Below, in pieces: positions 1 through 42,108 of a stretch of DNA of 64,000 nucleotides. The stretch lies in IMG/VR virus record IMGVR_UViG_3300042276_000285; one strand, given 5' to 3'. This stretch comes from an uncultured virus (IMG/VR IMGVR_UViG_3300042276_000285) (Duplodnaviria > Heunggongvirae > Uroviricota > Caudoviricetes). Position 1 is the stretch's first letter, and each line of letters starts with the position of its first letter. The notes beneath the pieces were generated by a model. The model had not been told where the DNA came from. It worked only from the letters and a program-made list of their open reading frames with translations, and made no database searches. A program made the translations under genes and the position numbers.

Positions 1-26
1 CTAATTGGTTTTAATAATAGTTAGCG
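1..26 (+). other. attI-like proximal recombination site of array 1 (may extend left of window)
   Basis: CTAATTGGTTTTAATAATAG|TTAGCGG. Nt 1-23 are the exact reverse complement of 41969-41991 at the end of array 2; no hairpin arm precedes this GTT. Confidence 0.7.
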
Positions 27-809
27 GTAATGCGAACCAAACACATCATCCACCGCTATGTTATAATATTCCTTTTCCTTTTCAATCCCAATAAATCTTC
101 TGTTCAAATCCTTAGCACCTAAACAAGTTGTCCCACTACCCATTGTGTTATCAAGTACATACTCGTTTTCTTCACTATATGCAGTAATCAACCACTTTAT
201 TAAATCCAAAGGTTTTTGAGTTGGGTGCTTTTGGTCTTGTCTTCTCCATTGTTGTGGATAGTCAAGTACAGTAATTGGGTGTCTTGTTCCTTTATTGTCA
301 GTCTGCACCCCTTTTATTCCGTACTTCATATTGTTTTGTTTGTTTGGTGTCCATTTACGTTTATACGGCTTTCCTTCCGTAAGTTGTGGTAAGTAATAAC
401 TTGCACTTTCACCAAATACTAATATCATTTCGTGTTTTTTAAGTGGCATATATTTAGCGGTAAAAGGGCTTCCACACTTACTTTTCTTCCAAACCATATC
501 GTATCTAAATAACCTTTCGTTACTAAGCGCAAGTTTAAAAGCAAACATTCCAGCACCAAACAAAACAATATTTCCCTTTGGTTTTAATATGCGTTCATAT
601 TCAACCCACAACTTGTTTAGGTCTAAAACACTATCCCATTTATTTGCAGTCGTTCCATAAGGCAAGTCAGCCAAAATAAGTTGAACAGATTTATTGGGTA
701 TCAAAGGAAGAATATCCATACAATCCGCATTGAACAAAGCACTACCGCCAACATTGGCTATATGTAATGCCTTATTTCCTGATTCGTATTTAAGTTTTTC
801 TATATCCAT
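21..809 (-). CDS. DNA methyltransferase, N6-A/N4-C family (beta class)
   Basis: DLPYG motif IV, HPTQKP, VLDNTMGSGTT SAM-binding motif, FIGIEKE. The start lies in the attC1 loop and the stop is the TAA of the core at 20-23. Confidence 0.9.
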   Translation of the reverse strand: MDIEKLKYESGNKALHIANVGGSALFNADCMDILPLIPNKSVQLILADLPYGTTANKWDSVLDLNKLWVEYERILKPKGNIVLFGAGMFAFKLALSNERLFRYDMVWKKSKCGSPFTAKYMPLKKHEMILVFGESASYYLPQLTEGKPYKRKWTPNKQNNMKYGIKGVQTDNKGTRHPITVLDYPQQWRRQDQKHPTQKPLDLIKWLITAYSEENEYVLDNTMGSGTTCLGAKDLNRRFIGIEKEKEYYNIAVDDVFGSHYR

Positions 810-876
810 AAGCTCCTACTTCGTATTAATTTTTTTGGTAGTTTATCGGCACTACACATAGCCCTATCCGTTATAC
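746..876 (+). repeat. attC-like site 1 (131 bp)
   Basis: CGCCAACattGGCTATATGTAATGCC ... GGCACTACACATAGCCctatccGTTATAC. Confidence 0.85.
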
Positions 877-958
877 CTCATTGCGCCAAAAAAATTGTAA
901 ATAAATTTGAAAGCTAAATACATGGCGCAACGCACGCAAAACAGAAAAAGTTTTGCTG

Positions 959-1952
959 GTATAACACCATGTATATTTTATAGCTGTATCGTTCATTTAT
1001 TAGGCGTTTCTGCGTAAATCCGTTTTAATAATTTTCCCACCGCACATTAGTTTTTTCAAAACTATTTGGATTCAGATATTTCTTTTATGGAGTTTTCCCA
1101 TTTTTCAATTGATTCCTGATAGCTTTTAATGTTTTTTGTTAAGCTATCAATAGACCTATGTTTAAGGTCGTTTAACTTTTCGGCATCTAATTTTATTCCA
1201 TATTTTTCAGCTAATTTTTTATCATCTGCCGATATTTTATCTTTTTCAGACAATATGCTTTCGAGTTTTGCAATGGCTTCTTCTTTAGTATGAAATGGAA
1301 TAAACTTTTTATGTCCGCCGGAATAATCATAATAATCTCCAATAGCATATGTAAATGAACCGTCATCTTTACCAAAAAATGAAATCAATCTCAATCTTTC
1401 CTCATAGCTTTCGTTAAATTCAGCCATATCCATGATTTTCAAATCATATCCAGTAACAAGAATATACTTTATGTCGCCACAGATATAATCAGCCATTAAA
1501 TCAAATGTTTCAGGCTTAATTTTATCAATAGCAGACTTTATATATTCTATTTTATTTCTAAATTCTTTTGTTATCTCTCTATGTCTTTTTTCTAAACGAG
1601 ACATTTCGTCTAATCTTTGATTATACTCTTTTTTATAACGTTCTTCAACTTCTTTAATCCGTTTTTCTTGCCATGAAACAGCGGGAAAATCATGCAAACT
1701 TCTAACAACGAAGTTTTCACCAGAAGGAACTTCCTGATTATTTACTATAAAAACTTCCTGCACTATCTTTTCTTGTGCATTAAGATTTCCAATAACTACT
1801 ACTTTTTTACCGTCTGTTGTGTACTTAAATTCATTCATTGTTTTATATTTTAAAGTTTAAAAAATCCCTCTCAAAAATTATTAAAACTACGTCAGTTTTT
1901 CATTGAACATTCTGCATTAATCACGCTACAAAACATACATTTTCCGTTACCT
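959..1952 (+). repeat. attC-like site 2, loop expanded by a whole gene
   Basis: Arms ATGTATATTTTATAGC / GCTACAAAACATACAT; inner IR TTTTAATAATTTT / AAAATTATTAAAA. Confidence 0.8.
1062..1838 (-). CDS. Hypothetical phage protein (coiled-coil rich) inside attC2 loop
   Basis: 258-aa ORF with A/T-rich leader; no recognised motif. Confidence 0.8.
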   Translation of the reverse strand: MNEFKYTTDGKKVVVIGNLNAQEKIVQEVFIVNNQEVPSGENFVVRSLHDFPAVSWQEKRIKEVEERYKKEYNQRLDEMSRLEKRHREITKEFRNKIEYIKSAIDKIKPETFDLMADYICGDIKYILVTGYDLKIMDMAEFNESYEERLRLISFFGKDDGSFTYAIGDYYDYSGGHKKFIPFHTKEEAIAKLESILSEKDKISADDKKLAEKYGIKLDAEKLNDLKHRSIDSLTKNIKSYQESIEKWENSIKEISESK

Positions 1953-1962
1953 GCAATAAAAA

Positions 1963-2169
1963 TTACTTGTCATCTCTTTTAGGGCAAGTATATCTAACAT
2001 CGCCTTGCAAGTATTTAATCGCATTCCAAAGGTCATCTAATACTATTGTGCCAAGTGGTAGTAAGTTCCCTTTTCCATCTTTTACGCCAGATAGATAAAT
2101 AGCCAAGTCTTTTAAACTATCAGTTCCTACTATAATTTTTTCTTGCATTGGTTTGTTGTTATCTTCCAT
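1963..2169 (-). CDS. Hypothetical cassette protein (MEDNNKP...)
   Basis: ORF fills body 1946-2194; ATG at 2169. Confidence 0.65.
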   Translation of the reverse strand: MEDNNKPMQEKIIVGTDSLKDLAIYLSGVKDGKGNLLPLGTIVLDDLWNAIKYLQGDVRYTCPKRDDK

Positions 2170-2187
2170 AATCGTAATTTTAAAAGC

Positions 2188-2317
2188 AGGTAACAACGTG
2201 TATAAAAAATAGCTGTTAAGTGCTTTGGTTAATGTTATTTTATTTTTGTTTACTCTTTTACTAATTCAATTTTTAAGTGTGTTAAAACGCTACATTTCAT
2301 ACACAAATACGTTGTGC
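2188..2317 (+). repeat. attC-like site 3 (130 bp)
   Basis: GTGTATAAAAAATAGC / GCTACATTTCATACAC arms, GTT at 2311. Confidence 0.8.
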
Positions 2318-2332
2318 TTCATTAAAACGAAA

Positions 2333-3175
2333 GCACAACATGCAATATAAAACATGCTTAGTGTAGTGCTTCGTTTCAATGTTTCTACAAGTTTGACCAT
2401 AATTAAATATTTTTTTGCCCGCCCGCTTTGGTTTTTTCAAAACCATTAGGTTTTCGTAGTTTTGCAACAAATTCAAATCCAGTTCTTACATTGCCGTTTT
2501 GTCCAAACCCATTGCCATTAGTTTGTACTTGTCTTACTTCTTCAAGCATAAAACCTATCTCAATTAAAATTTTAATATGCCAAGAAAAAGCATCCACAAT
2601 CTTTCCTTTTCGTATATGGTTCTTAAAATTTAGTATAAACAACCCATCTTTTTTCAAAACCCGATACGCCTCTTTCCATGCTTTAATGTGTAAATTCCGA
2701 TAATCTTCGCCCCATTGCATTTTACCGCTATTATTATCGTTAAGAGTTCTACCCAACTTATGTGTGTATGTATTCCTACTACTTCCGTCATTAGCATTGT
2801 GGCAATCTGCCATTCTGTTGCCATATGTTGGGCTTGTGCATATTGCATCAAATTCGCAATTCGCAAATTGCAAATCCGTAGCATCTCCAACAATAGTTCC
2901 TTCTTGCATACCCGCCCATTCTGGTTCAATTTCAACACCTATTGTATCAAAAGGCAAGCTATGTATCTTTCCTGTCCCAGCGAACGGGTCTAAAACAGTC
3001 TTGCATCCTTGAAGCATTTCTTCAAATACTGGTAAAAGTGCATCTGTATATTTAGCTGGGTGCTTTGGTTTATTCATAAAAATCCCTCCCTAAAAAATAT
3101 TTAATTATTACCGTTGTGCTTCGCATCATAGTTTCTGCGTAATTGTCGCACGTTTCATATTGCTGTCCGTTATGT
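2333..3175 (+). repeat. attC-like site 4, loop holds a methyltransferase gene
   Basis: GCAATATAAAACATGC / GCACGTTTCATATTGC arms, GTT at 3169. Confidence 0.8.
2403..3077 (-). CDS. DNA methyltransferase (probable N4-C/N6-A)
   Basis: HPAKY, VLDPFAGTG motif I, TSPTY motif IV, YRVLKKDG. Confidence 0.85.
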   Translation of the reverse strand: MNKPKHPAKYTDALLPVFEEMLQGCKTVLDPFAGTGKIHSLPFDTIGVEIEPEWAGMQEGTIVGDATDLQFANCEFDAICTSPTYGNRMADCHNANDGSSRNTYTHKLGRTLNDNNSGKMQWGEDYRNLHIKAWKEAYRVLKKDGLFILNFKNHIRKGKIVDAFSWHIKILIEIGFMLEEVRQVQTNGNGFGQNGNVRTGFEFVAKLRKPNGFEKTKAGGQKNI

Positions 3176-3415
3176 GGCATTTGTTTCAATCTTCCAGTAC
3201 ATACTACAATAATCAGGGTAAAGTGGCTTTTCTTTTGCAGAATGTTCACCGCTAAACACCTTCATTTCTGTATGGTCAAGAAAGTCTTTCATAAAATAAT
3301 GTTCACCACTTTCGTAATCTTTTTCAGTCTTGTAAGCACAAAAACGCCACATAACAACAGGTATAGTTAATGCTCGTTCTTCTGCTAAGTCGTAATATTT
3401 TTTCTTTTTACTCAT
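3170..3415 (-). CDS. Hypothetical protein crossing attC5/body junction
   Basis: Starts in attC5 loop, GTT core read as Val, stop at next core. Confidence 0.6.
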   Translation of the reverse strand: MSKKKKYYDLAEERALTIPVVMWRFCAYKTEKDYESGEHYFMKDFLDHTEMKVFSGEHSAKEKPLYPDYCSMYWKIETNAT

Positions 3416-3479
3416 TTCTATTTTTAATTAAAGTGAATACTTCTATGGTCGCACTAATCATACCTGTGGTACGTTAGCA
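3349..3479 (+). repeat. attC-like site 5 (131 bp)
   Basis: ACAGGTATAGTTAATGC / GCACTAATCATACCTGT arms. Confidence 0.8.
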
Positions 3480-3485
3480 GTAATA

Positions 3486-4247
3486 CTACATTCCATCTCC
3501 GAATGAAGTTATCACATTAAATTCTTTTTCTTTTCTTTTTTCTTCCACCCTCTTTTTTGAATTAGTAAAATGTTCTAATTCTTTTTCAATGCCAATGAAA
3601 TTTCTATCAGTATTTATACAAGCAATTCCTGTTGAACAACTCCCCATCGTATTATCTAGTACCAAGTCATTTTCATCAGTATATGTTTTGATAAGATATT
3701 CCAACAAATCAACAGGTTTTTCAGAACTATGTAATCTACTGTAATTATCTACACACTTAAACTCTAAAATGTTTGTTGGAAATCTTGTTGTTTTACCACC
3801 TTCGTAATCTCTTGTATTTGTTCCGTGATATGCTTTTCCATTACTGCAACCTTTTGCACTATTTGTTGGTATGTGTCCATCTGTTATTTGTGGATAGTAT
3901 TTACCTTTTTTGAAAATACATATTTCTTCAATTTTTCTAATTGGCATTCGTTTAGCGTGAAAGAAATTAGTTCCTTGATTTTTCAACCAATACCAACAAT
4001 ATCTAAAATCCTTTTCATTGCTTGAAATTATTTTGGTTGTAAATGGCTGTGAAGCAAATAAAGCAATCGTTCCGTTTTTCTTTATTATTCGGTTGTATTG
4101 TTTCCAAAGTTCAATCATATCAATATGTTCATCCCATTTTGGTGCTGTCATCCCATAAGGTAAATCACAACAAATAAAATCAATACTTTTATCAGGTATC
4201 AATTTCATTTGTTCTATTGTATCTCCGTATCTTAAATCTATTGTCAT
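3486..4247 (-). CDS. DNA methyltransferase, N6-A/N4-C family (paralogue of 21..809)
   Basis: DLPYG, HSSEKP, VLDNTMGS, FIGIEKE. Confidence 0.9.
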   Translation of the reverse strand: MTIDLRYGDTIEQMKLIPDKSIDFICCDLPYGMTAPKWDEHIDMIELWKQYNRIIKKNGTIALFASQPFTTKIISSNEKDFRYCWYWLKNQGTNFFHAKRMPIRKIEEICIFKKGKYYPQITDGHIPTNSAKGCSNGKAYHGTNTRDYEGGKTTRFPTNILEFKCVDNYSRLHSSEKPVDLLEYLIKTYTDENDLVLDNTMGSCSTGIACINTDRNFIGIEKELEHFTNSKKRVEEKRKEKEFNVITSFGDGM

Positions 4248-4338
4248 AATTTTATTTTAATATTTTACCACCACACAAAAAAGAAAAGAAAAAGGTTCTG
4301 TTCTTCGATTGAGTATTTGTGGTTTAAATCCGTACTAC

Positions 4339-4432
4339 TGCTAACAGCGTATATAAGAAATGGCACATAAACATTTGTGCTAAATTTCAAGTTCGTGCAA
4401 GTGCCACTTCTCATATACGCAAACCGTTAGCG
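4339..4432 (+). repeat. attC-like site 6 (94 bp)
   Basis: GCGTATATAAGAAATGGCAC / GTGCCACTTCTCATATACGC arms. Confidence 0.9.
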
Positions 4433-4433
4433 G

Positions 4434-4847
4434 TCAGTTTTTTACCTTTAAATAATAAGCATACAACTCCTCTGTTGTCAAATGACCAACCGTGTGAATA
4501 TACCAACTACCACCCCTGTATCTAAACCAGCTATCAGCTTGCATTTTTTTAGCAATCCAGTCTGCGAACAAAACCGAACCGCTAACATTGTGCAAATGTA
4601 AACCGCTCGCTTCGTTGTTGCGTTCAGCCTCCGCGCGTTCTAAAAAATCATTCTCAAAATATTTTTTAATCTTTTTGCGCTCAGATGTTTTTAATTTAGT
4701 TATTTGTTTTTTGTGATATCCGGCTGTATAGTATTTGCCATTCCTTTTTACAGAATCGACAGTATATTCTAAAATTTTGTCGTTTATAATAATTGTAACA
4801 TCATGTGTAAATGTTTTTACTCTTTCTTTAAAATAAGTTATTTCCAT
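4434..4847 (-). CDS. Hypothetical fusion protein (attC7 loop + body)
   Basis: Junction peptide GLHLHNVSGS. Confidence 0.7.
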   Translation of the reverse strand: MEITYFKERVKTFTHDVTIIINDKILEYTVDSVKRNGKYYTAGYHKKQITKLKTSERKKIKKYFENDFLERAEAERNNEASGLHLHNVSGSVLFADWIAKKMQADSWFRYRGGSWYIHTVGHLTTEELYAYYLKVKN

Positions 4848-4932
4848 CGCGCGTTAATTTATAGTTTCGTAACTCGTATCAATGTTCATCTGTAATTCAA
4901 TAGCGGTCAGCACTTGCACTTTGCCGTTATAG
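4580..4932 (+). repeat. attC-like site 7
   Basis: GTGCAAATGTAAACCGCT / AGCGGTCAGCACTTGCAC arms. Confidence 0.8.
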
Positions 4933-5442
4933 TGCATTGCCCACCCGCTCAAAAACGAATTGCTTCGGAAGTAAATTTGAGCATAGGTAAATACTTTTAA
5001 ATGGTACGCCCTTTAGTTCTATTCCTGTCTTTATATAATCAATTCGTTTATCAAACACCATTATTTCAAATTTGTGGGTACTTAATAGTCCGTACCGCTT
5101 TTTGCTATCAAATAAACCTGCTTCATTAATCAACATTGCAAATGGTTTATTAAGTCCAAACAACCGTTCTAAAATCGGTTCTCGTAGGCTGTATGGTGGG
5201 TTACTTATAATTAGGTCGTAATTTTGTTCAGGTTCATACTCGAAAAAGTCTTTCCCTTCGTCAATATGTGAGTGTATAACATTATGGCTTTCACTCAGTA
5301 GTTTCACAAAATTACTTTCGTTCGTATCAAACGGACACCAAACGGTTGTTTTCGGTGGTAAATATGGTAAAAGCGGTACTATTGCGTAATCTTTAGTATA
5401 GTACTCATCGGCTTTGTTCTGTTTAAATTGGTGATTTGCCAT
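4927..5442 (-). CDS. Small phage adenine DNA methyltransferase
   Basis: DEYYT, VWCPFD, GKDFF, IISNPPYS motifs. Confidence 0.8.
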   Translation of the reverse strand: MANHQFKQNKADEYYTKDYAIVPLLPYLPPKTTVWCPFDTNESNFVKLLSESHNVIHSHIDEGKDFFEYEPEQNYDLIISNPPYSLREPILERLFGLNKPFAMLINEAGLFDSKKRYGLLSTHKFEIMVFDKRIDYIKTGIELKGVPFKSIYLCSNLLPKQFVFERVGNAL

Positions 5443-5456
5443 CGCTCAAAAACGCA

Positions 5457-5586
5457 CTATAACAATTTATATAAGTAATAGCCGTTGTAGTGCAATTATT
5501 AGGGCTTATTACTCTGTTTAACATTTGCAATTATTTCAAAGTTCGTGTTTCAAATCGGCTACTACTCATATAAGTATCCGTTATAA
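5457..5586 (+). repeat. attC-like site 8 (130 bp)
   Basis: TTATATAAGTAATAGCCG / CGGCTACTACTCATATAA arms. Confidence 0.85.
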
Positions 5587-5592
5587 AACATT

Positions 5593-5727
5593 TTAAGACA
5601 CATCATATGTCGAAAAATATTCACCATCTATATAAACTATTGCTTCATTTTCACGGTACTTTATTTTAATGTTTGAGCCGTAATTTAACTTTTCTCTGAG
5701 TAATTTAAGTAAGTCTTCTAAATACAT
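5593..5727 (-). CDS. Small hypothetical cassette protein (44 aa, MYLEDLLK...)
   Basis: Translated by hand; fills body 5580-5746. Confidence 0.55.
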   Translation of the reverse strand: MYLEDLLKLLREKLNYGSNIKIKYRENEAIVYIDGEYFSTYDVS

Positions 5728-5739
5728 AATAAAAACGTT

Positions 5740-5835
5740 TTATAACAAAAGCTATAAACAAAAAGCCTCTGTTTGGTTTGTACTTTTAATTATATTTTAT
5801 GGTTCGGCTTTCAGTTCATAGCCAAGCCGTTAGCG
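5740..5835 (+). repeat. attC-like site 9 (96 bp)
   Basis: GCTATAAACAAAAAGCC / GGCTTTCAGTTCATAGC arms. Confidence 0.85.
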
Positions 5836-6123
5836 TTCAGTTTGCCGATTATTGCAAATTTTCCAAATTGTTCCGTTCAGACATTTTCCATTGTATTGGT
5901 CTAAGCATGGTCTGTAATGGCAAACCGCATCGCTAACATGCGGTTTATTGCAGTTGCTCAGCTCGTCCGAACTTTTTGCCAACGCGCGGGGAAGCCATTC
6001 AAAACTTATAACCGAATCAACTCTTTTTTGTCCCTGTTTTTCGTACCAGTCAAATAGCTGGTCTTCCTCGGTTTGCGTTTCTGGTGTAATATGTGGCACA
6101 TTATCTGTAAATTGTATTTTCAT
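5830..6123 (-). CDS. Hypothetical fusion protein with Cys-rich C-terminus
   Basis: Junction peptide NCNKPHVSDA. Confidence 0.65.
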   Translation of the reverse strand: MKIQFTDNVPHITPETQTEEDQLFDWYEKQGQKRVDSVISFEWLPRALAKSSDELSNCNKPHVSDAVCHYRPCLDQYNGKCLNGTIWKICNNRQTER

Positions 6124-6212
6124 CCTACGCTCGTATTTTTATGGTTATTTACTCGTATCAACTTATTCGGTTATTGTAGCGGCAACCGACAACAAACCGC
6201 CAGCCGTTAGCA
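5931..6212 (+). repeat. attC-like site 10
   Basis: GCGGTTTATTGCAGTTGC / GCAACCGACAACAAACCGC arms. Confidence 0.8.
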
Positions 6213-6345
6213 ATAATAAAAACTAACAGTATCAATATGTACCGCCTATTTTGTCACTGCCGCAATTTGCACAGCTTGTAAAATTAAAATGTTCTATATT
6301 ATATGGATTCCATTTGTATCCACATTCCATACATTTACAATAGTC

Positions 6346-6519
6346 TTATTTAAAATCGTTTTTACTATTGCTAACATTATGCAAATTTAAATTTTTAATT
6401 TTCCATTCTGCATATTCGTTCATTGCGTTCAATATCGTGGCTTCCTTGCCTATATCTTCCAAACAAGGTTCCCAACTTCTCCAAATTTCAAGCATTTTTA
6501 AAGTGTCGTTTTTACTCAT
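6346..6519 (-). CDS. Small fusion ORF (57 aa) followed in frame by a stop-separated Zn-ribbon module
   Basis: MSKNDTLKM...NLNLHNVSNSKNDFK* then DYCKCMECG...CANCGSD to TGA at 6232. Confidence 0.5.
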   Translation of the reverse strand: MSKNDTLKMLEIWRSWEPCLEDIGKEATILNAMNEYAEWKIKNLNLHNVSNSKNDFK

Positions 6520-6569
6520 AATATTTCAATTTAAAATTAAAAATCAAAACTTGCACTTGTCCGTTAGCA
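6369..6569 (+). repeat. attC-like site 11
   Basis: TGCAAATTTAAATTTTTAATT / AATTAAAAATCAAAACTTGCA arms. Confidence 0.75.
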
Positions 6570-6578
6570 ATCAGTTTG

Positions 6579-6971
6579 CTAACCATCTATTCCACATTTA
6601 ATACACTTTAATGCAAATGGTATGTCAGATTCTTCGTTTGTTGTCCACTCGTGTTCGCAAACCGCCGTTTCGTCATTTATTTGCGCTTCGTGCTTAACGC
6701 CACATTCGCACTCATAAATAACTTTTGTAATCGGGGCTAATTTGTTGCATAAAGGGCAAATAAATTCCTTCACTTTGCTAACACCATGCAAAGGTAATGC
6801 TGCGCTCTCGTCCAAACTGTTTCCCGATGCTCGTTCTAATTCAAGAATATAATTAGCCAAATATTCTCTTTCATTAATCGTTAGAATATCAGCTTTTGTT
6901 TTGCCAATTAAAGCACTCACAATCATTTTTCGTTCCAATCCAAGTTTATTCAATTTGTTAATGTAATCCAT
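6579..6971 (-). CDS. Hypothetical fusion protein with Zn-ribbon C-terminus
   Basis: Junction peptide DESAALPLHGVS; CxxC pairs. Confidence 0.7.
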   Translation of the reverse strand: MDYINKLNKLGLERKMIVSALIGKTKADILTINEREYLANYILELERASGNSLDESAALPLHGVSKVKEFICPLCNKLAPITKVIYECECGVKHEAQINDETAVCEHEWTTNEESDIPFALKCIKCGIDG

Positions 6972-7057
6972 CGCTCGTATTATTTAATCGTTATTTACTC
7001 GTATCTACTTTCGTGCAGCTTTCAGGGCAGCACATACCCTTGCATTTACCGTTAGCA
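6776..7057 (+). repeat. attC-like site 12 (same shell as 35599-35965)
   Basis: ATGCAAAGGTAATGCTGC / GCAGCACATACCCTTGCAT arms. Confidence 0.9.
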
Positions 7058-7063
7058 GTAATG

Positions 7064-7306
7064 CTATTTGTGCTTATCATAAAATTCAATTAAATGATAT
7101 ATGCACTTCGCATCTCCCGTACTGCTAAACATATACTTTTGCCTCAAATATTCAACCATTTCATCAAGACTTAATGTGTTCCAATCAAACATAGGTGAAG
7201 CACTACTGCTAACACCATGTAAAAAACATTGCTCGGCAAGTTTCTTAGCATCTGGCTTTGGTTCACCTATTATAATCACTTTTGGCTTTTTGTCTTTATC
7301 TTTCAT
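7064..7306 (-). CDS. Hypothetical fusion protein
   Basis: Junction peptide CFLHGVSSSA. Confidence 0.65.
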   Translation of the reverse strand: MKDKDKKPKVIIIGEPKPDAKKLAEQCFLHGVSSSASPMFDWNTLSLDEMVEYLRQKYMFSSTGDAKCIYHLIEFYDKHK

Positions 7307-7339
7307 ATCGCAACGATTTTTTACATTTCAACGTTGTAT
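7207..7339 (+). repeat. attC-like site 13 (133 bp)
   Basis: ATGTAAAAAACATTGC / GCAACGATTTTTTACAT arms. Confidence 0.8.
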
Positions 7340-7491
7340 TTCACGGTAAGACCGAGAGGTTCAGAATCTACTTTAAAAATTCTTGTTTTAAAGTAGTGAA
7401 CCGAAGGGATTACGCGACGGTAGGAGCGAGTGAAATACAACGGCTTCGTGTAAACTTGAAATATGTGACCACTTTAACCGGAGCGAGCGCA

Positions 7492-7768
7492 ACACAACAA
7501 AAGTGTAAACGTAATTTCAAACGCGAGCTTAATTTCATTTCAAGTTCCTGTATTGCTCCCAGCCTTTAAAATTGAAATCTCTTTATTCATTCGCTCAATG
7601 CGTACATCGTATTTTTTAACATCGGTCATATAACCTAAATTTTCGTGTACTTTTCTCAATTCAAGTAACCTATCTCTATAAATTTCAAATGTCTTTAATA
7701 TGTCCATGATATTTCAATTTTAAATTCTTTCTCAATCCAGAAACTACGTTTACACGAAGCCGTTAGGC
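7492..7768 (+). repeat. attC-like site 14
   Basis: GTGTAAACGTAATTTC / GAAACTACGTTTACAC arms. Confidence 0.75.
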
Positions 7769-8053
7769 TTCATTTACCTCCGCACTCATAAATAATTCCC
7801 ATGCCTTTTGGTAGTTCTTATGCCACATTTTTTGTAACTCAATATCTTTATCACTCCAATTGTGTTTAGGCTGTAATTCGGCATAAGAATCATCATCCCA
7901 ACCCATTACAACGCCATACATAAAAGCTATCATCTTATCTTCGCTGCAATCTCTGGAGGTAAATGCGAATGTTTCGTGCAACCTTTGTAATGGGTTTGTT
8001 GGCGTTTCCATCTCATCTCTTGTTTGCCATTTTAATTCTGTATTATCTTTCAT
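7763..8053 (-). CDS. Hypothetical cassette protein (MKDNTELK...)
   Basis: ORF between CCWCCGCAC direct repeats; stop in core. Confidence 0.7.
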   Translation of the reverse strand: MKDNTELKWQTRDEMETPTNPLQRLHETFAFTSRDCSEDKMIAFMYGVVMGWDDDSYAELQPKHNWSDKDIELQKMWHKNYQKAWELFMSAEVNEA

Positions 8054-8086
8054 AATATTGTTTTTATCCCACCGCACAAAACGAAA

Positions 8087-8216
8087 GCCTAACAATGTAT
8101 AAAAATAATAGGCGGTTACGTGCGTGTAGGTAGTTTATAATCATTTAATTAATTGTATTCTGTTTGCGAAGTTCAGCGTTTCAAATCGCCTACTATTCTT
8201 ATACTCACCGTTACCG
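8087..8216 (+). repeat. attC-like site 15 (130 bp, related to site 8)
   Basis: GTATAAAAATAATAGGCG / CGCCTACTATTCTTATAC arms. Confidence 0.85.
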
Positions 8217-8286
8217 TGCATGCTAAATTTTAATTTAGTGCCGTGCTTAATCAGAAAGTGTTTAACCTTTAAGAAAAAGCACGACA

Positions 8287-8635
8287 CGGTAACAATGTGT
8301 AACTACAAAATGCTCGTAGCTCGTAAAACCATTTAGCCATCACACAACTCTGTTACCAGTAAGTCTTATCTTACCATCATCTTTTGGCTGTGTTTCCATT
8401 ACAATAAATTCACTTCCGTCTGAATTGTGTCTGTGCAATATTACAATTGCATCTAATTCAACTTTCCCATAAACAGAATCACCATAGTCTATGGTAACTT
8501 TTCTTGTTTTTGTTTTTCTTGTAGGCATATTTATTTATTTAGTTGCCCTCCGCGCTGTACTTTGGGCTGTTAATTCTCGTATCAAAGTCGCTGCAAATTT
8601 GAAGCAGCATTCAGTAGTTACACCAACCGTTAACG
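8287..8635 (+). repeat. attC-like site 16
   Basis: GTGTAACTACAAAATGCT / AGCATTCAGTAGTTACAC arms. Confidence 0.85.
8340..8528 (-). CDS. Small hypothetical protein in attC16 loop
   Basis: 62-aa ORF flanked by CCATCACAC / CCTCCGCGC. Confidence 0.6.
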   Translation of the reverse strand: MPTRKTKTRKVTIDYGDSVYGKVELDAIVILHRHNSDGSEFIVMETQPKDDGKIRLTGNRVV

Positions 8636-8977
8636 CACATGCTGAGAATCGTATTCATCAGCAGCTTTGCGTAATTCGTTATATTCTATAACAGGTACAG
8701 TAAACTTTTTGAAACGGTGTGCAATCTTTGAACCATCTACATATTCAGCAAGGTTTCCGCAGCTTTCAACAAAAGCACGTGCGTTAACACAAGCTAAATG
8801 CAAACCGCCTTCGGTATCTGAATCGGGCTTGCCAACGCTCGCAATAAATTTGGCTGTTAACTCTTTATTTCTGTAAAGAAATTCAGTTATAACTTGTGAG
8901 TTAGTCGTGTCATTGTTAACCTTCCAATCGGTTTTTTTATCAATGAAGGTTAGTAGTTCATTTAAAAATTTTTCCAT
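8630..8977 (-). CDS. Hypothetical fusion protein
   Basis: Junction peptide GGLHLACVNARA. Confidence 0.7.
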   Translation of the reverse strand: MEKFLNELLTFIDKKTDWKVNNDTTNSQVITEFLYRNKELTAKFIASVGKPDSDTEGGLHLACVNARAFVESCGNLAEYVDGSKIAHRFKKFTVPVIEYNELRKAADEYDSQHVR

Positions 8978-9061
8978 CGCTTCGGTATTTTAAAGTTATT
9001 TGTTATCTGATAATTCATCGGTTATTCAAAAGGCGGTCAGCACTTAGCTAAACCGTTAGCA
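8782..9061 (+). repeat. attC-like site 17 (family of site 7)
   Basis: AGCTAAATGCAAACCGCCTT / AAGGCGGTCAGCACTTAGCT arms. Confidence 0.85.
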
Positions 9062-9113
9062 ACAATGCCTTTAAATAATTGCCAACACTCAAAAGCCTTA
9101 CACAAGGCACAGT

Positions 9114-9537
9114 TGCTAACACGTTGTATAAAACATGCTTGCGGTAGTGCCTCGTGCTAGCTTCGGTGCTTAATTGGAGCAAAATAATAATGCCCCACGC
9201 ACAACAACTACTTTTTAATTTCAGGCCAACTCCACTCGCGCTCTCCTGTACCCAAAACAGCAGAAGTTACCCAAAGGTTTTCTTCTCCATCAAGTAGTAC
9301 TTTAAGGTTTACGCACTCGTCACCCCACACAGCAGTAATAACCGCAGGTGCATCTTCTTGGTAATTGTTCATCTTGTCCTTTTGCTCTTCATCACAATGA
9401 TAAATCACAATTCTACCTATTGTTGGTGTCATAACTAAATATGGGTTTTACAAAGCCCGCCCAGGGCATTATTATTTTTTCTCTCGTGTGAAGGTCAGTG
9501 CAAATTTGCCGTACTTGCCATATTGCCACCGTTAGCT
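9114..9537 (+). repeat. attC-like site 18 with non-matching (hybrid) outer arms
   Basis: Both boxes present; inner IR AAAATAATAATGCC / GGCATTATTATTTT; outer arms do not pair. Confidence 0.6.
9208..9432 (-). CDS. Small phage protein (MTPTIGRIVIY...WSWP)
   Basis: PTIGRIV / PAVIT / VNLKV / W-WP pattern typical of a common small phage protein. Confidence 0.75.
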   Translation of the reverse strand: MTPTIGRIVIYHCDEEQKDKMNNYQEDAPAVITAVWGDECVNLKVLLDGEENLWVTSAVLGTGEREWSWPEIKK

Positions 9538-10288
9538 ACAAAGCCAACAACTGTTCGTACTTTTTTAAACATTTACGGCAAATTAAGCGTGTGTCTATTT
9601 TTGTCGGTTGCTTATCCAACGCACGAAATGGAATATTGCCGTCAGGGTGTGTATATTTTGAATCATCTTTTGTTTTATCATAGGTTGGTAAGCCAGAAAG
9701 CGATAATGTATTATAGCCACCATTTTTTACTGAATATCCTGTCGTTTTATGATCTGGTTCGCAAAGAACTTTTCCATCAACGGCAATATGACGTTTTTTA
9801 GTAGCCCAACACAAAGCAACCTTGCGTTCTGCGTTTGGCTCAGTAGCTAACACATTACATAGGTCATTTGCTTTGCTATTCGGATGTTTGGTACTTTTAT
9901 TCATCGTATCTGTTTTTTGAAGTTTTGTAAATTTATTCAGGGGCAAACGCCCCATGTAATCGGCACGGTACCATTCATTCGCCCCACCGCACATCGTAAT
10001 ATCATTGTAACCACCAATTCCAACAACTTTTGCATCATCCCAATTACTTATCCCGTATTTAAACTCTCGCATTTCTGTGTAGGGTTTTCCTTTAAATCTA
10101 ACATCGGGCTTTGGCATCTTATCAAACATGAAGAAACCATCACAGCAATGCAACTGTTTTTCGCTGTAATAAAATACGTGCGTAGCCCTATTCTTTCTAA
10201 ATGGGTTACTCATAAACGCCCAACACTGCAACGAAATGGTAACAATGTGTAGGCGTAATGCCTTCGTTTTTTTAATTAAAGTTTTCAT
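9536..10288 (-). CDS. Read-through fusion of two cassettes
   Basis: Spans attC20, body 20, attC19 and body 19; core mutation at 9968 removes the internal TAA. Confidence 0.55.
   Translation of the reverse strand: MKTLIKKTKALRLHIVTISLQCWAFMSNPFRKNRATHVFYYSEKQLHCCDGFFMFDKMPKPDVRFKGKPYTEMREFKYGISNWDDAKVVGIGGYNDITMCGGANEWYRADYMGRLPLNKFTKLQKTDTMNKSTKHPNSKANDLCNVLATEPNAERKVALCWATKKRHIAVDGKVLCEPDHKTTGYSVKNGGYNTLSLSGLPTYDKTKDDSKYTHPDGNIPFRALDKQPTKIDTRLICRKCLKKYEQLLAL
9845..9973 (+). repeat. attC-like site 19 with mutated core (GGT)
   Basis: ATTACATAGGTCATTTGC / GCAAACGCCCCATGTAAT arms; GGTACCATT where GTTACCATT is expected. Confidence 0.8.
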
Positions 10289-10354
10289 ATACTTTTAGTT
10301 TTTAAGTTTTAAAACGAGTCAGTGGTGGCACTCCGCCTACACCAACCGTTATAG
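10237..10354 (+). repeat. attC-like site 20 (118 bp)
   Basis: GTGTAGGCGTAATGCC / GGCACTCCGCCTACAC arms. Confidence 0.85.
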
Positions 10355-10372
10355 TGCATTTCCATCCGCACT

Positions 10373-10537
10373 CTAAATCTGTTTATAAAATTCAATTTCT
10401 TTTCTTGTCATAGGTACTACTTGGTAACCATAACCTTGTTCTGCTTTCCAGTTAAAACATTCTTCGTATGTACCTGCATATACCTCATTACCCTCATCTT
10501 CATGGTAAACTAAATCAATTACTTTATGTGTTTTCAT
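10373..10537 (-). CDS. Small hypothetical cassette protein (MKTHKVID...)
   Basis: ORF in body 10348-10578. Confidence 0.6.
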   Translation of the reverse strand: MKTHKVIDLVYHEDEGNEVYAGTYEECFNWKAEQGYGYQVVPMTRKEIEFYKQI

Positions 10538-10630
10538 TTTATAATTTGTTATGCCTACCCGCAAAAACGCACTATAACAAGCGGTCATAAAAAATTGCGG
10601 GGTTAGCGGTTAACATTTAAACTTCTACAC

Positions 10631-11020
10631 TTATTCGCATTCATACGTGTTAACGTTTTTTTCAATTTTAAGCATTTCTCTATAATGCAGATCCACATCA
10701 ATGTCCTTTAATCTATTCATGTATCCACCCCACCACCACAGGTTTTTTAAAAAAGAAATTGGCTTGTTGTGGTAACCTTCGTCACCTGTGTGATATTTGT
10801 CTATACACGGAAATATGAACCTCTTATCACAGATCAACTCTCCGTCCCTTCCTTTCAGGTGGTGAAAAGAAACATCTTTCCACGTTACGTGATCCGGTAT
10901 AGGCAGGCCAGAAAACACGCACACCCATTTTCCGGCTTCTTTCAATTCTTTTTCTTTTTCTTGCTTTGCCCTGTTGTAGGCGCGTATTTCAACCTTTCTC
11001 TTTTCTGATATCTTTTTCAT
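10631..11020 (-). CDS. Putative HNH-like nuclease domain protein
   Basis: CVFSG...FHH...C..YH....YH spacing resembles HNH/Ref-like folds. Confidence 0.45.
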   Translation of the reverse strand: MKKISEKRKVEIRAYNRAKQEKEKELKEAGKWVCVFSGLPIPDHVTWKDVSFHHLKGRDGELICDKRFIFPCIDKYHTGDEGYHNKPISFLKNLWWWGGYMNRLKDIDVDLHYREMLKIEKNVNTYECE

Positions 11021-11152
11021 TTAATTTAGCTATTGATCTTACCAATACGACTGTCATAAACACAATCGCCAATATTCCAAAAATCCACCCTAATATCGTG
11101 TGGTGAAACAACCTTGCAATCGCCACGCACACAAACGAGTAAAATATTCCTT

Positions 11153-11347
11153 TCATTCTCTTTCTCCTATGTCTCTTAGTATTTCGTTGTATGTTCTCTT
11201 TCTATGCGTAAAGCCACACGCCGGACAAACATAAAAGTCGTGACACTTGTCCCACCTGTTTTTACGTCTTTTTGCCCTTACTAGGGTCATTTCCGTGTTA
11301 CACACGTTGCAAACGCTTTCGTCTCTTTGTGCTTCTTCTATGTTCAT
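11153..11347 (-). CDS. Zn-ribbon protein
   Basis: CNVC ... CPACG. Confidence 0.6.
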   Translation of the reverse strand: MNIEEAQRDESVCNVCNTEMTLVRAKRRKNRWDKCHDFYVCPACGFTHRKRTYNEILRDIGERE

Positions 11348-11500
11348 ATTAATTTTATTTTACGAAAACACAAACTCACTTCCGTAGTAAGTATGACTCC
11401 TTTTATACCCATGTGAGCGATTTTGAATGCGTTTTAAGACACTTTCCTCGTCCCGGGGCGTCATAAATATACCAGCCGCACATATCTGCGTTTATCCTCA

Positions 11501-18438: not shown

Positions 18439-18672
18439 TCATATAACATACAGTATGCTTTTTTCGTCTATGTAAATGTAGTTAATTCCGTGTATTTTTA
18501 CGTTTGTGCCTCCACGACGAAACACTACCTCGTCTCCGGGGATAAGTTCCGAGCCTTCTCCTGCGACACGAACTGTGCCGTCAAACAAATCTTTGAATTT
18601 GTCTGGAACTATTATTCCGTCTTGTTTCTTTTTTTCTATTAATAGTTTTCCTTCGAGTACATTCATTGCCAT
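18439..18672 (-). CDS. GroES/Cpn10-like co-chaperonin
   Basis: GIIVP, GTVRVAGEG, PGDEVVF, IDEKSILYVI. Confidence 0.75.
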   Translation of the reverse strand: MAMNVLEGKLLIEKKKQDGIIVPDKFKDLFDGTVRVAGEGSELIPGDEVVFRRGGTNVKIHGINYIYIDEKSILYVI

Positions 18673-18701
18673 ATTTTTATATGCTTAACATGCAGTAAAA
18701 A

Positions 18702-19382
18702 CTACAAAACTCCCTGTATCCAACATCGCTGCAAGTATCCTATTCCTTTTTCAAGTATCGCAAATACGTCGTTTTCTATTTCTGTAAACCAGTTTCCTTC
18801 AAACACAACCACGTCGCCAACGCTAACATCAGCATCTACCATCAAAGAGTTGTGATACATGTCGTTTTTTCTTCCTGTGTACAAAACCTTTCCAAGACGC
18901 TTGTTCTGAAAGTCTCCAAAGTCAAGAATCAATCCTTCCACGCGCACGTTGTCAACAACTGGCTCTACAACAACGTTTCCGTTCAATGGGTATATTTCTC
19001 CGTTTCTGGCGCGAAGAATCAACTCTGAATAGTTAACAACAAAATATATATCGTTGCCACATTTAATAACCGGGGCGTTAGCACCTTCCATCTTTCCAAA
19101 GAACACAACGTCTCCTTCTTCAATCTCCACTTGTGTCTTCCATCCCATAGCACCTTCAAACATAGTCTCCCATTGTCCAATCAACTTCTTTGGTGCTTTT
19201 ACTACTGTTCCGTATCGTGCTACACGCCCCGGTTCGTCCCATTCCCCACCAGCTAAGATAATACTGCCAAACTTAGTTCCATCTTCCGGGACAAAATCAA
19301 CCTTAACTAAAACCTTGTTGTTTATCATTGGCTTGTTGCCAAGTTCTTTTAATTCTATCTTTTGTCGTTCTGCTATTCCCAT
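18702..19382 (-). CDS. Tandem double-GroES-like protein
   Basis: Two repeats: NKVLV..GSIIL..GTVV..EGDVVFF and PLNGNVVVEP..GLIL..GKV..VGDVVVF. Confidence 0.75.
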   Translation of the reverse strand: MGIAERQKIELKELGNKPMINNKVLVKVDFVPEDGTKFGSIILAGGEWDEPGRVARYGTVVKAPKKLIGQWETMFEGAMGWKTQVEIEEGDVVFFGKMEGANAPVIKCGNDIYFVVNYSELILRARNGEIYPLNGNVVVEPVVDNVRVEGLILDFGDFQNKRLGKVLYTGRKNDMYHNSLMVDADVSVGDVVVFEGNWFTEIENDVFAILEKGIGYLQRCWIQGVL

Positions 19383-35598: not shown

Positions 35599-35965
35599 CG
35601 CTAACGGTAAATGCAAGGGTATGTGCTGCCATGAAAGTTGCACAGACAATGATACGAGTAAACGACAAAACAAATAAAAGCGATGGAAAAAATAACTTAT
35701 TACACAAACAGCGGTGAATTTATAGCTGACAAATTACTGCCATGTCCTTTTTGTGGGGGTGAGCCTGAATTTATAACAATCGGAAACTACCACACAAAGA
35801 GTAGAAAAGCACAAATTGAATGTACCAAATGCCATGTAAGGCGAACAACTGGCACAATTAGAAATGACCTTGAATGGTGTGGACGTAAAGCAATTGAGGC
35901 TTGGAACGCGCGTTGGCAAGACAGTTCGGACGAGAGCGCAGCATTACCTTTGCATGATGTTAGCG
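35599..35965 (-). repeat. attC-like site sharing its shell with 6776-7057
   Basis: GCTAACGGTAAATGCAAGGGTATGTGCTGCC and GGACGAGAGCGCAGCATTACCTTTGCATG identical to the reverse complement of site 12. Confidence 0.9.
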
Positions 35966-38684: not shown

Positions 38685-38735
38685 AATGGCTGCTAACGGT
38701 AACTTGTAAGTTGTCGGTTTTTATTAACGGATTAA

Positions 38736-39867: not shown

Positions 39868-40117
39868 AAAAGCAAAAGTGCGAGGGCAAAATAAAATATG
39901 GAATTAGCGCAGAATGTTGATTAAATGTACCACACCAAGCCATTATTTTTATGCATTGTTATGCACCGTGCTTTTTGTAACTTTGAAACACGGACGTAAC
40001 AACAAAGATGCATTTATGAATAATAGCATGGTGCATAACGGTTGCAACAAGTGGCGTTGCTGCCAGACAGTTGATTAAATGAACGGACGTTAAAAAAATA
40101 ATTTTAGGGAGGGTTTT

Positions 40118-40834
40118 ATGATTAATTTTTTCTTTGGTAACTACAAAATATTTACGCGCAATATCCCTGATTTATATTACGATTGGACTATTGCCGATAT
40201 TCCCTACGGAATTGACGTTGCAAATATGGCTTATCTGAAAGAAGTTAATACAACAGTTAAACAGAAAAATGGAAATAGACTTAATCCAAACCGAAACAAA
40301 AAAGCATATAAACAAAAGGATTGGGACAAACAAACACCTTCTCAAGATTACTTTGACGAGATTAGGCGCATAAGTAAGAATCAGATTGTTTTCGGTGTTA
40401 ACTATGTTGATTGGAAAGGACTTGGAAAAGGCAGAATTAAATGGGATAAAGGTGTTCCTGATGGTGTTAGTTTTAACCGTTATGAATATGCCTATTGTAG
40501 TTCGATTGATTATGAACACGAAATACAACTTCTTTGGGCTGGAATGTGCCAAGCTAAAAGCCTGAGCGAACCAATGACACAGCAAGGCAATAAGAAACTC
40601 AATGAAAAACGTATTCATCCATGCCACAAGCCTATTTTGCTTTATAAAAGACTATTGCTTGATTTCGTGGAACCTGGGATGAAAATAATTGACACGCATG
40701 GAGGAGGAATGAGTTTAGCAATTGCTGCAGATGAATTTGGCGCAGATGCAGATATATGTGAGATTGACGGTGAATACTTTAATTCTGGAACTAACAGATA
40801 TAAATTGCACAAACGCCAACTCAAACTGTTTTGA
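40118..40834 (+). CDS. DNA methyltransferase, N6-A/N4-C family
   Basis: ADIPYGI, RIHPCHKP, IIDTHGGG, CEIDGEYF. Confidence 0.85.
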   Translation: MINFFFGNYKIFTRNIPDLYYDWTIADIPYGIDVANMAYLKEVNTTVKQKNGNRLNPNRNKKAYKQKDWDKQTPSQDYFDEIRRISKNQIVFGVNYVDWKGLGKGRIKWDKGVPDGVSFNRYEYAYCSSIDYEHEIQLLWAGMCQAKSLSEPMTQQGNKKLNEKRIHPCHKPILLYKRLLLDFVEPGMKIIDTHGGGMSLAIAADEFGADADICEIDGEYFNSGTNRYKLHKRQLKLF

Positions 40835-41137
40835 AAAAACAGTACGTGGGTCGGCAAATTATTTTTTGATTTTATGCAGAAACTTAGCTATGAAATACCG
40901 AAGCAATGCCATTTGTTGCGTGTTAGCGTGCCAACGGGAACGGTTTTGCTAAACTGGTTTTCATGTTTGCTTATAAGTTTCAAGCAAAACTGCACGCTAA
41001 CGGCTATTGTAAGAATAGTAGCCGTAAAATACGCAGAAAAGTTGATTGAAATACAATAGTTTAATAACCGATAATAGCTCTAAAAAGACCACATAGCAGG
41101 CTATTATTTTTACAAATTGTTATGTGGCGTTATTATT

Positions 41138-41965: not shown

Positions 41966-42003
41966 ACATAACTATTATTAAAACCAATTAGTTTAACCAA
42001 TTA
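41966..42003 (-). other. attI-like proximal site of array 2
   Basis: 41969-41991 is the exact reverse complement of 1-23; internal direct repeat AACCAATTA at 41982 and 41995. Confidence 0.7.
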
Positions 42004-42108
42004 ATTTTCAATCAGATAAAAATGGATTTGACAGAACTGAAACAAAACTATGTCACTGTTTTGACTGCGCATATCCATTTTTGTATCTTTGTAGAAAAAT
42101 AAATAAAC

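Follow-up and report, generated by a model that had tools for sequence, protein, structure and literature searches.

Cassette genesis is described as an open question for integrons (PMC8352920), and the locus that we analyzed poses it in a bacteriophage: are the short direct repeats that bracket its cassette genes the places where these genes are joined to their surroundings? The locus belongs to a 64,000-nucleotide stretch of DNA (the window) from an uncultured virus of the class Caudoviricetes (IMG/VR record IMGVR_UViG_3300042276_000285), which is, judging from its sequence, part of a crAss-like phage of Flavobacteriia. The accessory early genes of this phage are housed in two integron-like arrays, at 1–10.6 kb (genes on the minus strand) and 35.1–42 kb (genes on the plus strand), wherein AAC-[imperfect hairpin]-GTT units alternate with GTT-[body]-AAC units, each body having ends that are complementary to one another. 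Within these cassettes there is a second, inner layer of modularity, and its seams coincide with a 9-nt G-rich box (sense strand, GNGCGNNGG). Read along the coding strand, gene-bearing units consist of a stem arm, a T-run, a box that is usually followed by an A-rich pentamer, a leader and coding sequence (CDS), a second box, and the complementary stem arm. We refer to the outer parts as the shell and to the leader plus CDS as the cargo. An earlier inspection of the letters of this DNA (the sequence-only reading) had noted such repeats and proposed that a second reaction loads DNA into pre-made shells. Its quoted sequences were all found in place when the window was read again.

A box at the inner edge of reusable shells

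The arrangement is displayed in full by the filled cassette body at 7762..8093 (minus strand), which comprises a shell, two boxes, and a 96-aa cargo CDS and whose shell holds other cargo elsewhere. The body reads GTTAGGCTTCATTTA-CCTCCGCAC ... CCACCGCAC-AAAACGAAAGCCTAAC; on the coding strand, GTTAGGC-TTTCGTTTT is followed by GTGCGGTGG, by GATAAAAACAATATT-ATG and the CDS, and then by AGT, GCGGAGG, and T-AAATGAA-GCCTAAC. Its stems, GTTAGGCTT(T)CGTTT and AAATGAAGCCTAAC, are complementary, and the arms pair across 15 bp with one bulge and one G.T pair, with the boxes lying as direct repeats directly inside them. The 5′ shell arm (8078..8093, minus strand, sense GTTAGGCTTTCGTTTT) includes the core GTT, the stem, and the T-run, and it is invariant in 13 shells. 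Next to it lies the 5′ box GTGCGGTGG (8069..8077, minus strand), 15 nt upstream of the ATG at 8053. The cargo CDS (7763..8053, minus strand) has no stop codon of its own and continues through the 3′ box GTGCGGAGG (7777..7785, minus strand), which is translated as part of the tail ..SAEVNEA*, into the 3′ shell arm (7762..7776, minus strand, sense TAAATGAAGCCTAAC, with the core AAC), where the TAA of the core serves as the stop codon.

The box pattern CCNNCGCNC occurs 22 times in the window versus an expectation of 7.27 +/- 2.66, and none of 100 shuffled sequences reaches 22. Two arrays account for 18 of these matches, whereas the other 47 kb hold four, three of which are within long open reading frames (ORFs) on the coding strand and one of which is antisense. 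Fourteen array matches are on the plus strand (1037–9992), where genes run on the minus strand, and four are on the minus strand (35908–39886), where genes run on the plus strand. Because the match strand is opposed in the two arrays in the same manner as the gene strand, the G-rich form GNGCGNNGG is always on the coding strand in the arrays. Moreover, 16 of the 18 array boxes are located at ORF starts, ORF ends, or junctions between a head and a body: four contain the ATG of an ORF (4844, 5439, 6968, and 37164), three are 0–18 nt upstream of an ORF start (6124, 8069, and 8547), five are inside fused ORFs at 149–204 nt before the stop codon (4628, 5979, 8832, 35908, and 38483), and four are at the end of a CDS (7777, 1037, 9194, and 39878). 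The other two reside inside a 250-aa composite ORF (9616 and 9984). The observation of the sequence-only reading, that the motif brackets cargo and often supplies the ATG, is confirmed. In its list of box pairs, 4628/4844, 5979/6124, 8832, 8547, 5439, 6968, and 35908 match the pattern exactly, and the others are one-mismatch or 10-nt variants, namely CCGATGCTC (6823–6831), CCATCACAC (8337), CCATCGCTT (8974), CCACCCGCTC (4941–4950), CCATCCGCAC (10362–10371), CCTACCCGC (10554), and AAGCGATGG (35678). We considered AGGGAGGG, which precedes some ATG codons, as a further form of the box and rejected it; this sequence is 5–8 nt from the ATG and resembles a Shine-Dalgarno (SD) site.

Shells in other phages were collected by their stem arm alone, without use of the box. 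The 16-nt arm GTTAGGCTTTCGTTTT was found at 34 viral loci, most of them chance matches, and these yielded 10 distinct bodies that close with GCCTAAC inside 700 nt. Further shells of this AGGC family came from the GenBank phage LS06-2018-MD05 (one) and from a 14-mer scan with the 3′ arm (two; at least four new shells were recovered among the matches listed, which are mostly chance). In total, the AGGC shell of 7762–8093 holds 13 coding sequences that have no mutual BLASTP similarity. The arm of a second shell family (ATAGTGC), GTTATAGTGCGTTTTT, was found at 24 loci that represent seven distinct bodies, two of which are the window's own units, with six kinds of cargo. When 20 cargo proteins from the two shell families were compared by BLASTP, the only related pair was L196/L205 (E 1.6e-51), and no other pair had E < 0.06. 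Because unrelated cargo is found in one and the same shell, shells are reusable frames, and the box is their inner edge.

Box matches, defined for this purpose as 9-mers with at least 5 of 6 fixed bases, were then counted at the cargo junctions and in the interior. In 11 AGGC shells, matches occupy 9 of 88 positions at the 5′ junction and 12 of 121 at the 3′ junction, versus 1 of 2985 in the interior and 0 antisense, and the 5′ box position itself holds a match in 9 of the 11. In seven ATAGTGC shells, the corresponding values are 5 of 56, 7 of 77, and 7 of 2149, with one antisense match. Box-like 9-mers are thus present at both cargo junctions and almost absent from the interior, as had been predicted for homologous shells whose cargo breakpoints are mapped, and on neither count (enrichment at the boundaries, divergence of the shells at the motif) do the data go against the prediction. 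The motif and the architecture of shell and cargo are real and widespread.

Positions at which homology breaks

Two kinds of comparison locate the seam more closely, since one shell can be followed through different cargo and one cargo can be followed through different stems. What both have in common is the box and no other sequence, which is the behavior expected of a crossover region. In the first kind, conservation on the 3′ side of shared shells starts with the box. The second kind is illustrated by the body at 4926..5463 (minus strand), a member of the second shell family that carries a 171-aa DNA methyltransferase between a 5′ box that holds its ATG (5439–5447) and a 3′ box (4941–4950). 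This methyltransferase is 69% identical to those of L240 and L242, which have other stems, and the similarity includes the T-run and box on the 5′ side (versus L240) and the box on the 3′ side and ends at the stems. We rejected ATGGCAAAT at 5439 as shell sequence, given that relatives in other stems begin with the same codons. The same shell is used by an unrelated 54-aa cargo at 10348..10578 (minus strand; boxes 10554–10562 and 10362–10371). The cargo of 7763–8053 is also found in a related shell with co-varying stems (L006), and in L008 and Brevundimonas jumbo phages it occurs with no cassette around it. Relatives of the L027 cargo amounted to one distant match, which is uninformative.

A further case is provided by comparison with a sister phage (L155). 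The hairpin-loop unit at 40040..41001 (plus strand) encodes a 238-aa methyltransferase of the N6_N4 type, in place of which L155 has a SpoU-type gene between the same flanks (94.8% identical on the 3′ side). The 3′ break corresponds to the inner edge of the box, and the 5′ break follows an SD-like AGGGA(G/T)GG that we do not count as a box. One cargo of L155 comprises two genes and has its box behind the second of them only, which means that boxes delimit units rather than individual genes. In four public runs, the contigs of related phages are broken at outer box edges (8080, 4277, 6820, 8830, and 2413) and also at start codons (3074, 6967, 7307, and 9437); the positions of such breaks and joints, and not contig depth or uncovered parts, were taken as evidence. 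Two of the places just named recur as contig joints (2413/2443 and 3074) in the unit at 2399..3108 (minus strand), which carries methyltransferase cargo in a perfect 17-bp inverted repeat, with a G-rich 3′ box-like sequence GCGGGCGGG at 2417–2426 and the SD-like AGGGAGGG upstream of its ATG. The seam between the reusable and the variable part is visible at single-nucleotide resolution, with one short motif serving several unrelated shell families, and the natural variants with swapped contents in public data make the question testable.

The sequence-only reading had further claimed that matching empty and filled alleles exist. This does not apply to the 29-bp body at 2311..2339 (minus strand; GTTGTGCTTCATT-AAAACGAAAGCACAAC) that it regarded as the empty form of 7762–8093. 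That body has a GTGC stem rather than AGGC and no box, and it is therefore a paralogous unit and not an allele. The claim does apply to one hairpin-loop family, whose units are ordered as hairpin arm, promoter-like stretch, ATG-box, cargo, second box, ~40 nt of the other arm, and core GTT (Val). The arms TAAATGCAAGGGTATGTGCTGC and GCAGCATTACCTTTGCATG, or sequences close to them, enclose different cargo in five loop units, two of them in the window and the others L227, L228-2, and L234, and each unit has an ATG-box plus a second box 38–42 nt before the core. The window unit at 6777..7056 (minus strand) has its cargo in the loop, with the ATG-box at 6968–6976 and the second box at 6823–6831, 41 nt before the core; its ORF (6579–6971) extends into the next body. 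The same hairpin arms at 35600..35964 (plus strand, array 2) enclose a Lar-domain cargo, with the ATG-box at 35678–35686 and the second box at 35908–35916, 42 nt before the core. L228-1 is an empty, diverged relative of the loop arm whose sole ATG-box lies 41 nt ahead of the core and whose 44-aa ORF is in frame with the body, L232 likewise has just one box, at 35 nt, and a hairpin in LS06-2018-MD05 has one box in its loop. The 66-bp empty body at 9055..9120 (minus strand) indeed carries a single degenerate copy, as had been noted (sense GAGTGTTGG, 9082–9090).

Routes by which cargo might be exchanged

We favor a reading in which the boxes are the seams of an inner exchange of cargo that proceeds by short-homology joining at the boxes, and we assign it a probability of roughly 0.4. 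Cargo, consisting of a leader and CDS and sometimes of two genes, would be swapped between shells by joining at or inside the boxes, and its first capture would likewise involve joining at or within them. Folding of the flanking stem would place the two boxes side by side. The likeliest chemistry would be short-homology recombination, in the form of annealing or template switching while hairpin-prone DNA replicates, and the agents would be general phage or host recombination functions rather than a dedicated box-specific recombinase. The data show the anatomy of the units, its recurrence in unrelated shells, and the positions at which homology breaks; that joining takes place at the boxes, which way it runs (gain, loss, or swap), and by which enzymes it is done are inferences. 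Two cargos of recognizable family bear on where the joint would be made: the Lar domain ends at R77, inside GCGCGTTGG, and the methyltransferase family represented in 4926–5463 ends at ..FVFE, after which the residues are coded by the box. In both, the 3′ box overlaps the C-terminal codons, which fits a junction made inside the box. From the earlier proposal of a second reaction that loads pre-made shells, we retain the reusable frames with boxes at cargo junctions and the loop family with a single-box empty form, and we consider a dedicated site-specific reaction unlikely. Loading is one direction only, and swapping between filled shells, or loss, could equally have occurred.

Several observations weigh against exchange by short-homology joining at the boxes. 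One constraint concerns the reading frame at the 3′ box. The CDS continues through this box to the TAA of the core in 8 of 11 AGGC bodies (tails of the type ..ANEA*) and in 3 of 7 ATAGTGC bodies (tails ..GNAL*), and all 11 of these read-through cargos use a single frame, even though, by reading, an early TGA is available in one of the other frames of the AGGC arm. With three equally likely frames, the chance of this outcome is ~(1/3)^11. The junction between CDS and box is therefore not frame-blind, which counts against simple end joining and points to selection on the coded tail or to common descent of that end. Other cargos stop before the box, with the stop codon 0–1 nt upstream of it in L025, L196, L203, and L205. 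On the 5′ side, most AGGC shells continue from the box into GATAAA, and five shells with different cargo have the entire leader up to the ATG in common. Within a family, 5′ and 3′ boxes each have a separate consensus, like conserved shell parts. Also, pairing boxes from the same shell gives no greater similarity than pairing boxes from different shells, with 6.67 versus 6.52 of 9 positions for AGGC (P 0.30, 12 pairs) and 5.33 versus 5.42 for the second family (P 0.74, 6 pairs), and thus there is no sign of recent duplication or of exchange between copies. In terms of an att-like core, the members of a pair share only the consensus, yet the box is common to the partners in the shell and cargo comparisons.

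To these points can be added the distribution of boxes among filled and empty forms. Cargo is also held by shells that lack boxes (L017, L200, and the first L155 cassette), and the cargo of 7763–8053 recurs in L005 in another shell without a 3′ box. Of nine short bodies in the window (21–109 bp), the one at 9055–9120 has a box and the other eight do not, as judged by reading. A search of viral contigs for an empty AGGC shell with the pattern TTTCGTTTTN{0,16}AAATGAANNNNAAC, which would miss the box-less 29-bp body of the window (AATGAA, not AAATGAA), gave 31 matches, none with complementary stems, and a search of species genomes with TTCGTTTTN{0,30}AATGAAGCCTAAC gave six matches, none of them real. 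Among the contigs of related phages, no junction molecule (circle or precise deletion) was seen, and the single joint that links two box-like copies (7233->7307) may conceal sequence that has been replaced.

The fixed frame and the separate consensus of each box also speak for an explanation in which the boxes are working parts of the shell and have no role in joining, which we regard as doubtful. The 5′ box would then be the stretch that leads from the −10 element to the start codon (and that holds the ATG in loop units), and the 3′ box would serve as a coded tail or as an outer part of the attC-like site. Cargo would turn over by rare illegitimate events, with deletion trimming junk until the CDS is flush with the conserved parts. 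Consistent with such roles, the ATG is inside the box in four window ORFs and in seven compared loop units, conservation on the 5′ side extends to the ATG, each consensus is constant across cargo, and the 3′ box keeps the same frame in all 11 read-through cases. A sigma-70-like sequence, TAGATA-17-AATAAT, ends 2–3 nt before the box at 6968–6976. Sigma-70-like middle promoters are reported for the Cellulophaga crAss-like phage phi14:2 (bioRxiv 10.1101/2020.03.07.982082), and by this account promoters of that kind do work in such a phage. However, no single role in expression covers a motif that is located upstream of a leader, at the end of a CDS, and inside fused ORFs in all three frames. Multi-gene cargo has a box only at the end of the unit, and the box travels with cargo into other stems. 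Furthermore, scans of 1–10700 gave 37 promoter sites versus 42.5 in shuffled sequence and 5 terminator sites versus 6.7, and being no richer than shuffled sequence they lend no general support to a start-box role.

If, instead, a dedicated site-specific or strand-transfer enzyme recognized the box, perhaps together with the stem in folded ssDNA, and excised or inserted cargo, then single-box empty units would be its targets and two-box shells its products. We consider such an enzyme unlikely. Several features are those it would leave: the same box is at the inner edge of otherwise unrelated shells, boxes are always direct repeats on a single strand, the distance from box to core is the same whether a unit is empty with a single box or filled with two, the box is shared in both same-shell and same-cargo comparisons, and a tyrosine recombinase adjoins the array in L155. 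Against this, none of the 65 window ORFs scanned matched a recombinase family or a nuclease family. By reading, the box GNGCGNNGG has no dyad symmetry; box pairs have no identical core beyond the consensus, and 5′ and 3′ boxes differ in consensus. Most empty units lack a box, and box-less shells hold cargo. Finally, the L155 recombinase is well enough explained by the cores of the outer tier, and the 53-nt junction beside it contains no box. A two-tier construction that includes such a step is improbable to a similar degree. In this construction, an outer integron-like reaction at the AAC/GTT cores would move cassettes, whereas an inner, box-specific strand transfer on folded ssDNA would load and unload CDSs in reusable hairpin shells. 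The shells would supply the leader, the start, the C-terminal tail, and the stop codon, and the stem would bring the G-rich boxes together. If true, this would be a directly visible mechanism of cassette genesis. In any event, the box at both edges of each gene may reveal the route by which cassettes of this kind trade or acquire genes.

Far less probable is the explanation that the boxes are target-site duplications left by staggered-cut insertion into a single-stranded hairpin loop. The boxes are indeed 9 nt long and lie inside inverted repeats and outside the cargo, and loops with a single box exist (9055–9120, the L013 hairpin, and L228-1), but the box is a conserved motif rather than arbitrary target DNA, the cargo has neither terminal repeats nor a transposase, and we reject this origin on pair identity, since similarity within pairs does not exceed that across pairs (the values of 6.67 versus 6.52 and 5.33 versus 5.42 given above). 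Least credible of all is a Chi-like hotspot for host RecBCD or AddAB that protects the arrays and stimulates recombination around them, for which a G-rich, strand-specific motif of 8–9 nt whose orientation follows transcription and GC skew in both arms of the genome would be suitable. Against this role, the motif is confined to the arrays (with three of its four matches in the other 47 kb on the coding strand of long ORFs), box and reversed control gave 569 versus 438 and 167 versus 196 matches, and hence no excess, in two Bacteroidota genomes that are not of the host family, and the fixed position beside stems is left unexplained.

Outer arrays, related systems, and the phage

By reading, array 1 contains 18 complementary GTT...AAC bodies and array 2 contains ~12, separated by imperfect attC-type hairpins with a conserved AAC...GTT and with complementary cassette ends. 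Exchange of whole cassettes at the core triplet, as in classical integrons, is seen when arrays are compared. The methyltransferase body at 3471–4346 is 86% identical to Flavobacterium phage mymlan6-1, and the identity is bounded by GTTAGC and GCTAAC. Contigs of related phages diverge at the cores at 3111 (seven contigs), 4429, and 6777, and the contig joint 7047->9528 has the 9-nt sequence ACCGTTAGC common to both sides. Whole bodies thus move between phages. L155 is 99.6% identical to the window across 7048–11486 (backbone), whereas beyond the core ACCGTTAGC at 7048–7056, leftward in the window (L155 1–5286), it has another cassette set. A SpoU-type methylase and a PAPS-reductase-like gene belong to this replacement set, as does a copy of the unit at window 40848–41001. 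L155 also has ~290 nt at 9725–10016 that are extra relative to window 11482–11486, outside the arrays and within a run of small leftward genes.

The tyrosine recombinase of L155 (271 aa; PF00589, Phage_integrase family, E 3e-19) begins 53 nt past the last core, and junction and gene together occupy L155 1437–2305. The same 53 nt are found in the window right after the last core at 41972, in an attI-like junction with a remnant of the recombinase gene at 41973..42102 (plus strand). Of this gene, which is intact in L155, just the initial 43 nt persist in the window, within a 26-codon ORF with its ATG at 42022. Because L155 and the window share the stretch right after ...AAC though their last cassettes differ, it looks like an attI-like junction. 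In two respects the arrays depart from classical integrons. No ORF of a recombinase family (65 scanned) adjoins an array in the window, where only the 26-codon remnant at 42022 is present, and the cassette genes run the opposite way, with promoter-like sequences inside hairpin loops.

These arrays resemble IntI-dependent integron cassettes with attC sites, including attC clusters that lack an integrase (CALINs). Both are arrays of small, promoter-poor genes split by imperfect hairpins with little conservation beyond AAC...GTT, both have complementary cassette ends, modules shared between phages end exactly at the cores, and in L155 a tyrosine recombinase lies beside the array, although it can be assigned only to the general Phage_integrase family. 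In contrast to integrons, the phage genes have the opposite orientation and may sit in a hairpin loop and read across the core, the R-box stem reaches 13–15 bp, and the cargo is flanked by a second conserved element. We know of no box-like second element in attC cassettes, and a literature search found no description of a second conserved element flanking attC cassette cargo, nor of outer-tier arrays of this kind.

Another likeness is to the PeSL of T4-type phages, reportedly described as "mobile regulatory cassettes" by Arbiol and colleagues in 2010, in which conserved intergenic stem-loop and promoter segments are said to flank variable accessory ORFs in hyperplastic regions and to drive a modular shuffling that relies on short homology. 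The phage shells resemble them in having conserved flanks that are shared by unrelated ORFs, but unlike PeSL, these flanks pair across the gene, are nested within the integron-like tier, and terminate on each side in a direct-repeat box of 9 nt. The recombinase-associated arrays of Bacteroidota termed rAID-1, reportedly described by Ross and colleagues in 2019, belong to the same phylum and are said to have a tyrosine recombinase beside repeat-separated small genes and, apparently, a pool shared between hosts and phages. To our knowledge, no box has been reported for arrays of that type, and one scan of species genomes gave no real copy of the AGGC shell. In IS200/IS605 elements, the HUH enzyme TnpA performs single-strand transposition, in which excision gives a circle and a sealed donor, and short related motifs, all oriented alike on a single strand, are associated with DNA hairpins, as they are here. 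The phage hairpin, however, is formed jointly by both flanks and is not subterminal, the motif is 9 nt and not 4–5 nt, and no TnpA or other HUH enzyme was found among the 65 window ORFs scanned. Campbell-type integration likewise leaves direct copies flanking an insert, with a single copy in the empty site (compare L228-1 with filled units), whereas the phage boxes, unlike attL/attR, have no identical overlap within pairs, no dyad-symmetric core, and no enzyme.

The array cargo, in a family scan of window ORFs, includes seven DNA methyltransferases and one Lar restriction-alleviation domain. This mainly anti-restriction cargo, with several DNA methyltransferase families, is encoded at 21–809, 2403–3077, 3486–4247, 4927–5442, 39205–39867, 40118–40834, and, for the Lar domain, 35683–36120. 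Given that the cargo is largely of this kind, the process that moves it probably shapes the speed of escape from host defenses. Other cargos with flanking boxes, all on the minus strand, are located in the hairpin-loop unit at 4578..4932 (between box 4844–4852, with the ATG, and box 4628–4636), at 5936..6132 (a loop cargo between boxes 6124–6132 and 5979–5987, with an in-frame fusion across the core, plus-strand GCTAAC at 5931–5936), at 8787..8982 (a loop cargo between box 8974–8982, AAGCGATGG, with the ATG, and box 8832–8840), and at 8337..8555 (62 aa, between box 8547–8555 and the degenerate box 8337–8345).

Beyond the arrays, the large structural proteins of the window match podoviruses of Flavobacterium, Cellulophaga, and Tenacibaculum, one protein has a weak match to the crAss muzzle domain, and a virion-type protein of 2616 aa is encoded. 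Genes point leftward in 1–21 kb and rightward beyond, and GC skew tracks this direction. Over the arrays, the records G001 and G005 are identical to the window.

Some smaller features of the arrays were also noted. Several ORFs begin within hairpin loops and cross the core in frame, with GTT-AGC read as Val-Ser after a conserved L-x-L-H-x peptide, and a variable head is thereby fused to the next body (4434–4847, 5830–6123, 6579–6971, 7064–7306, 8630–8977, 35683–36120, and 38340–38684). A conserved 3′ module, composed of a small A/T hairpin GTTTTGAAAAAAC, 4–5 nt, and the box, ends three different cargos (window 1032–1072 and 2413–2453; L155 ~3640–3690). An antisense box-like sequence, CCTACACGC, is present at 8122–8130 in the loop of the hairpin upstream of the body 7762–8093 and could pair with the 5′ box ~45 nt downstream; a C-rich stretch like it is also present in the matching hairpin of LS06-2018-MD05. 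One entire non-coding hairpin (2178–2315) matches, at 91% identity, unannotated sequence in Polaribacter phage P12002L, whose genome is unrelated, is of siphovirus type, and has a comparable array of small genes and methylases. A single cassette is present in an unrelated phage-like contig (L011 in G003, 9409–9905), and its outermost cores, GATTATAAC and GTTATAATC, are mutually complementary, which is the nested pattern expected from one insertion into a resident site. Outside the arrays, three adjacent ORFs at 18439–19606 each match parts of the Cpn10 (GroES) family and may represent a split or repeated co-chaperonin gene.

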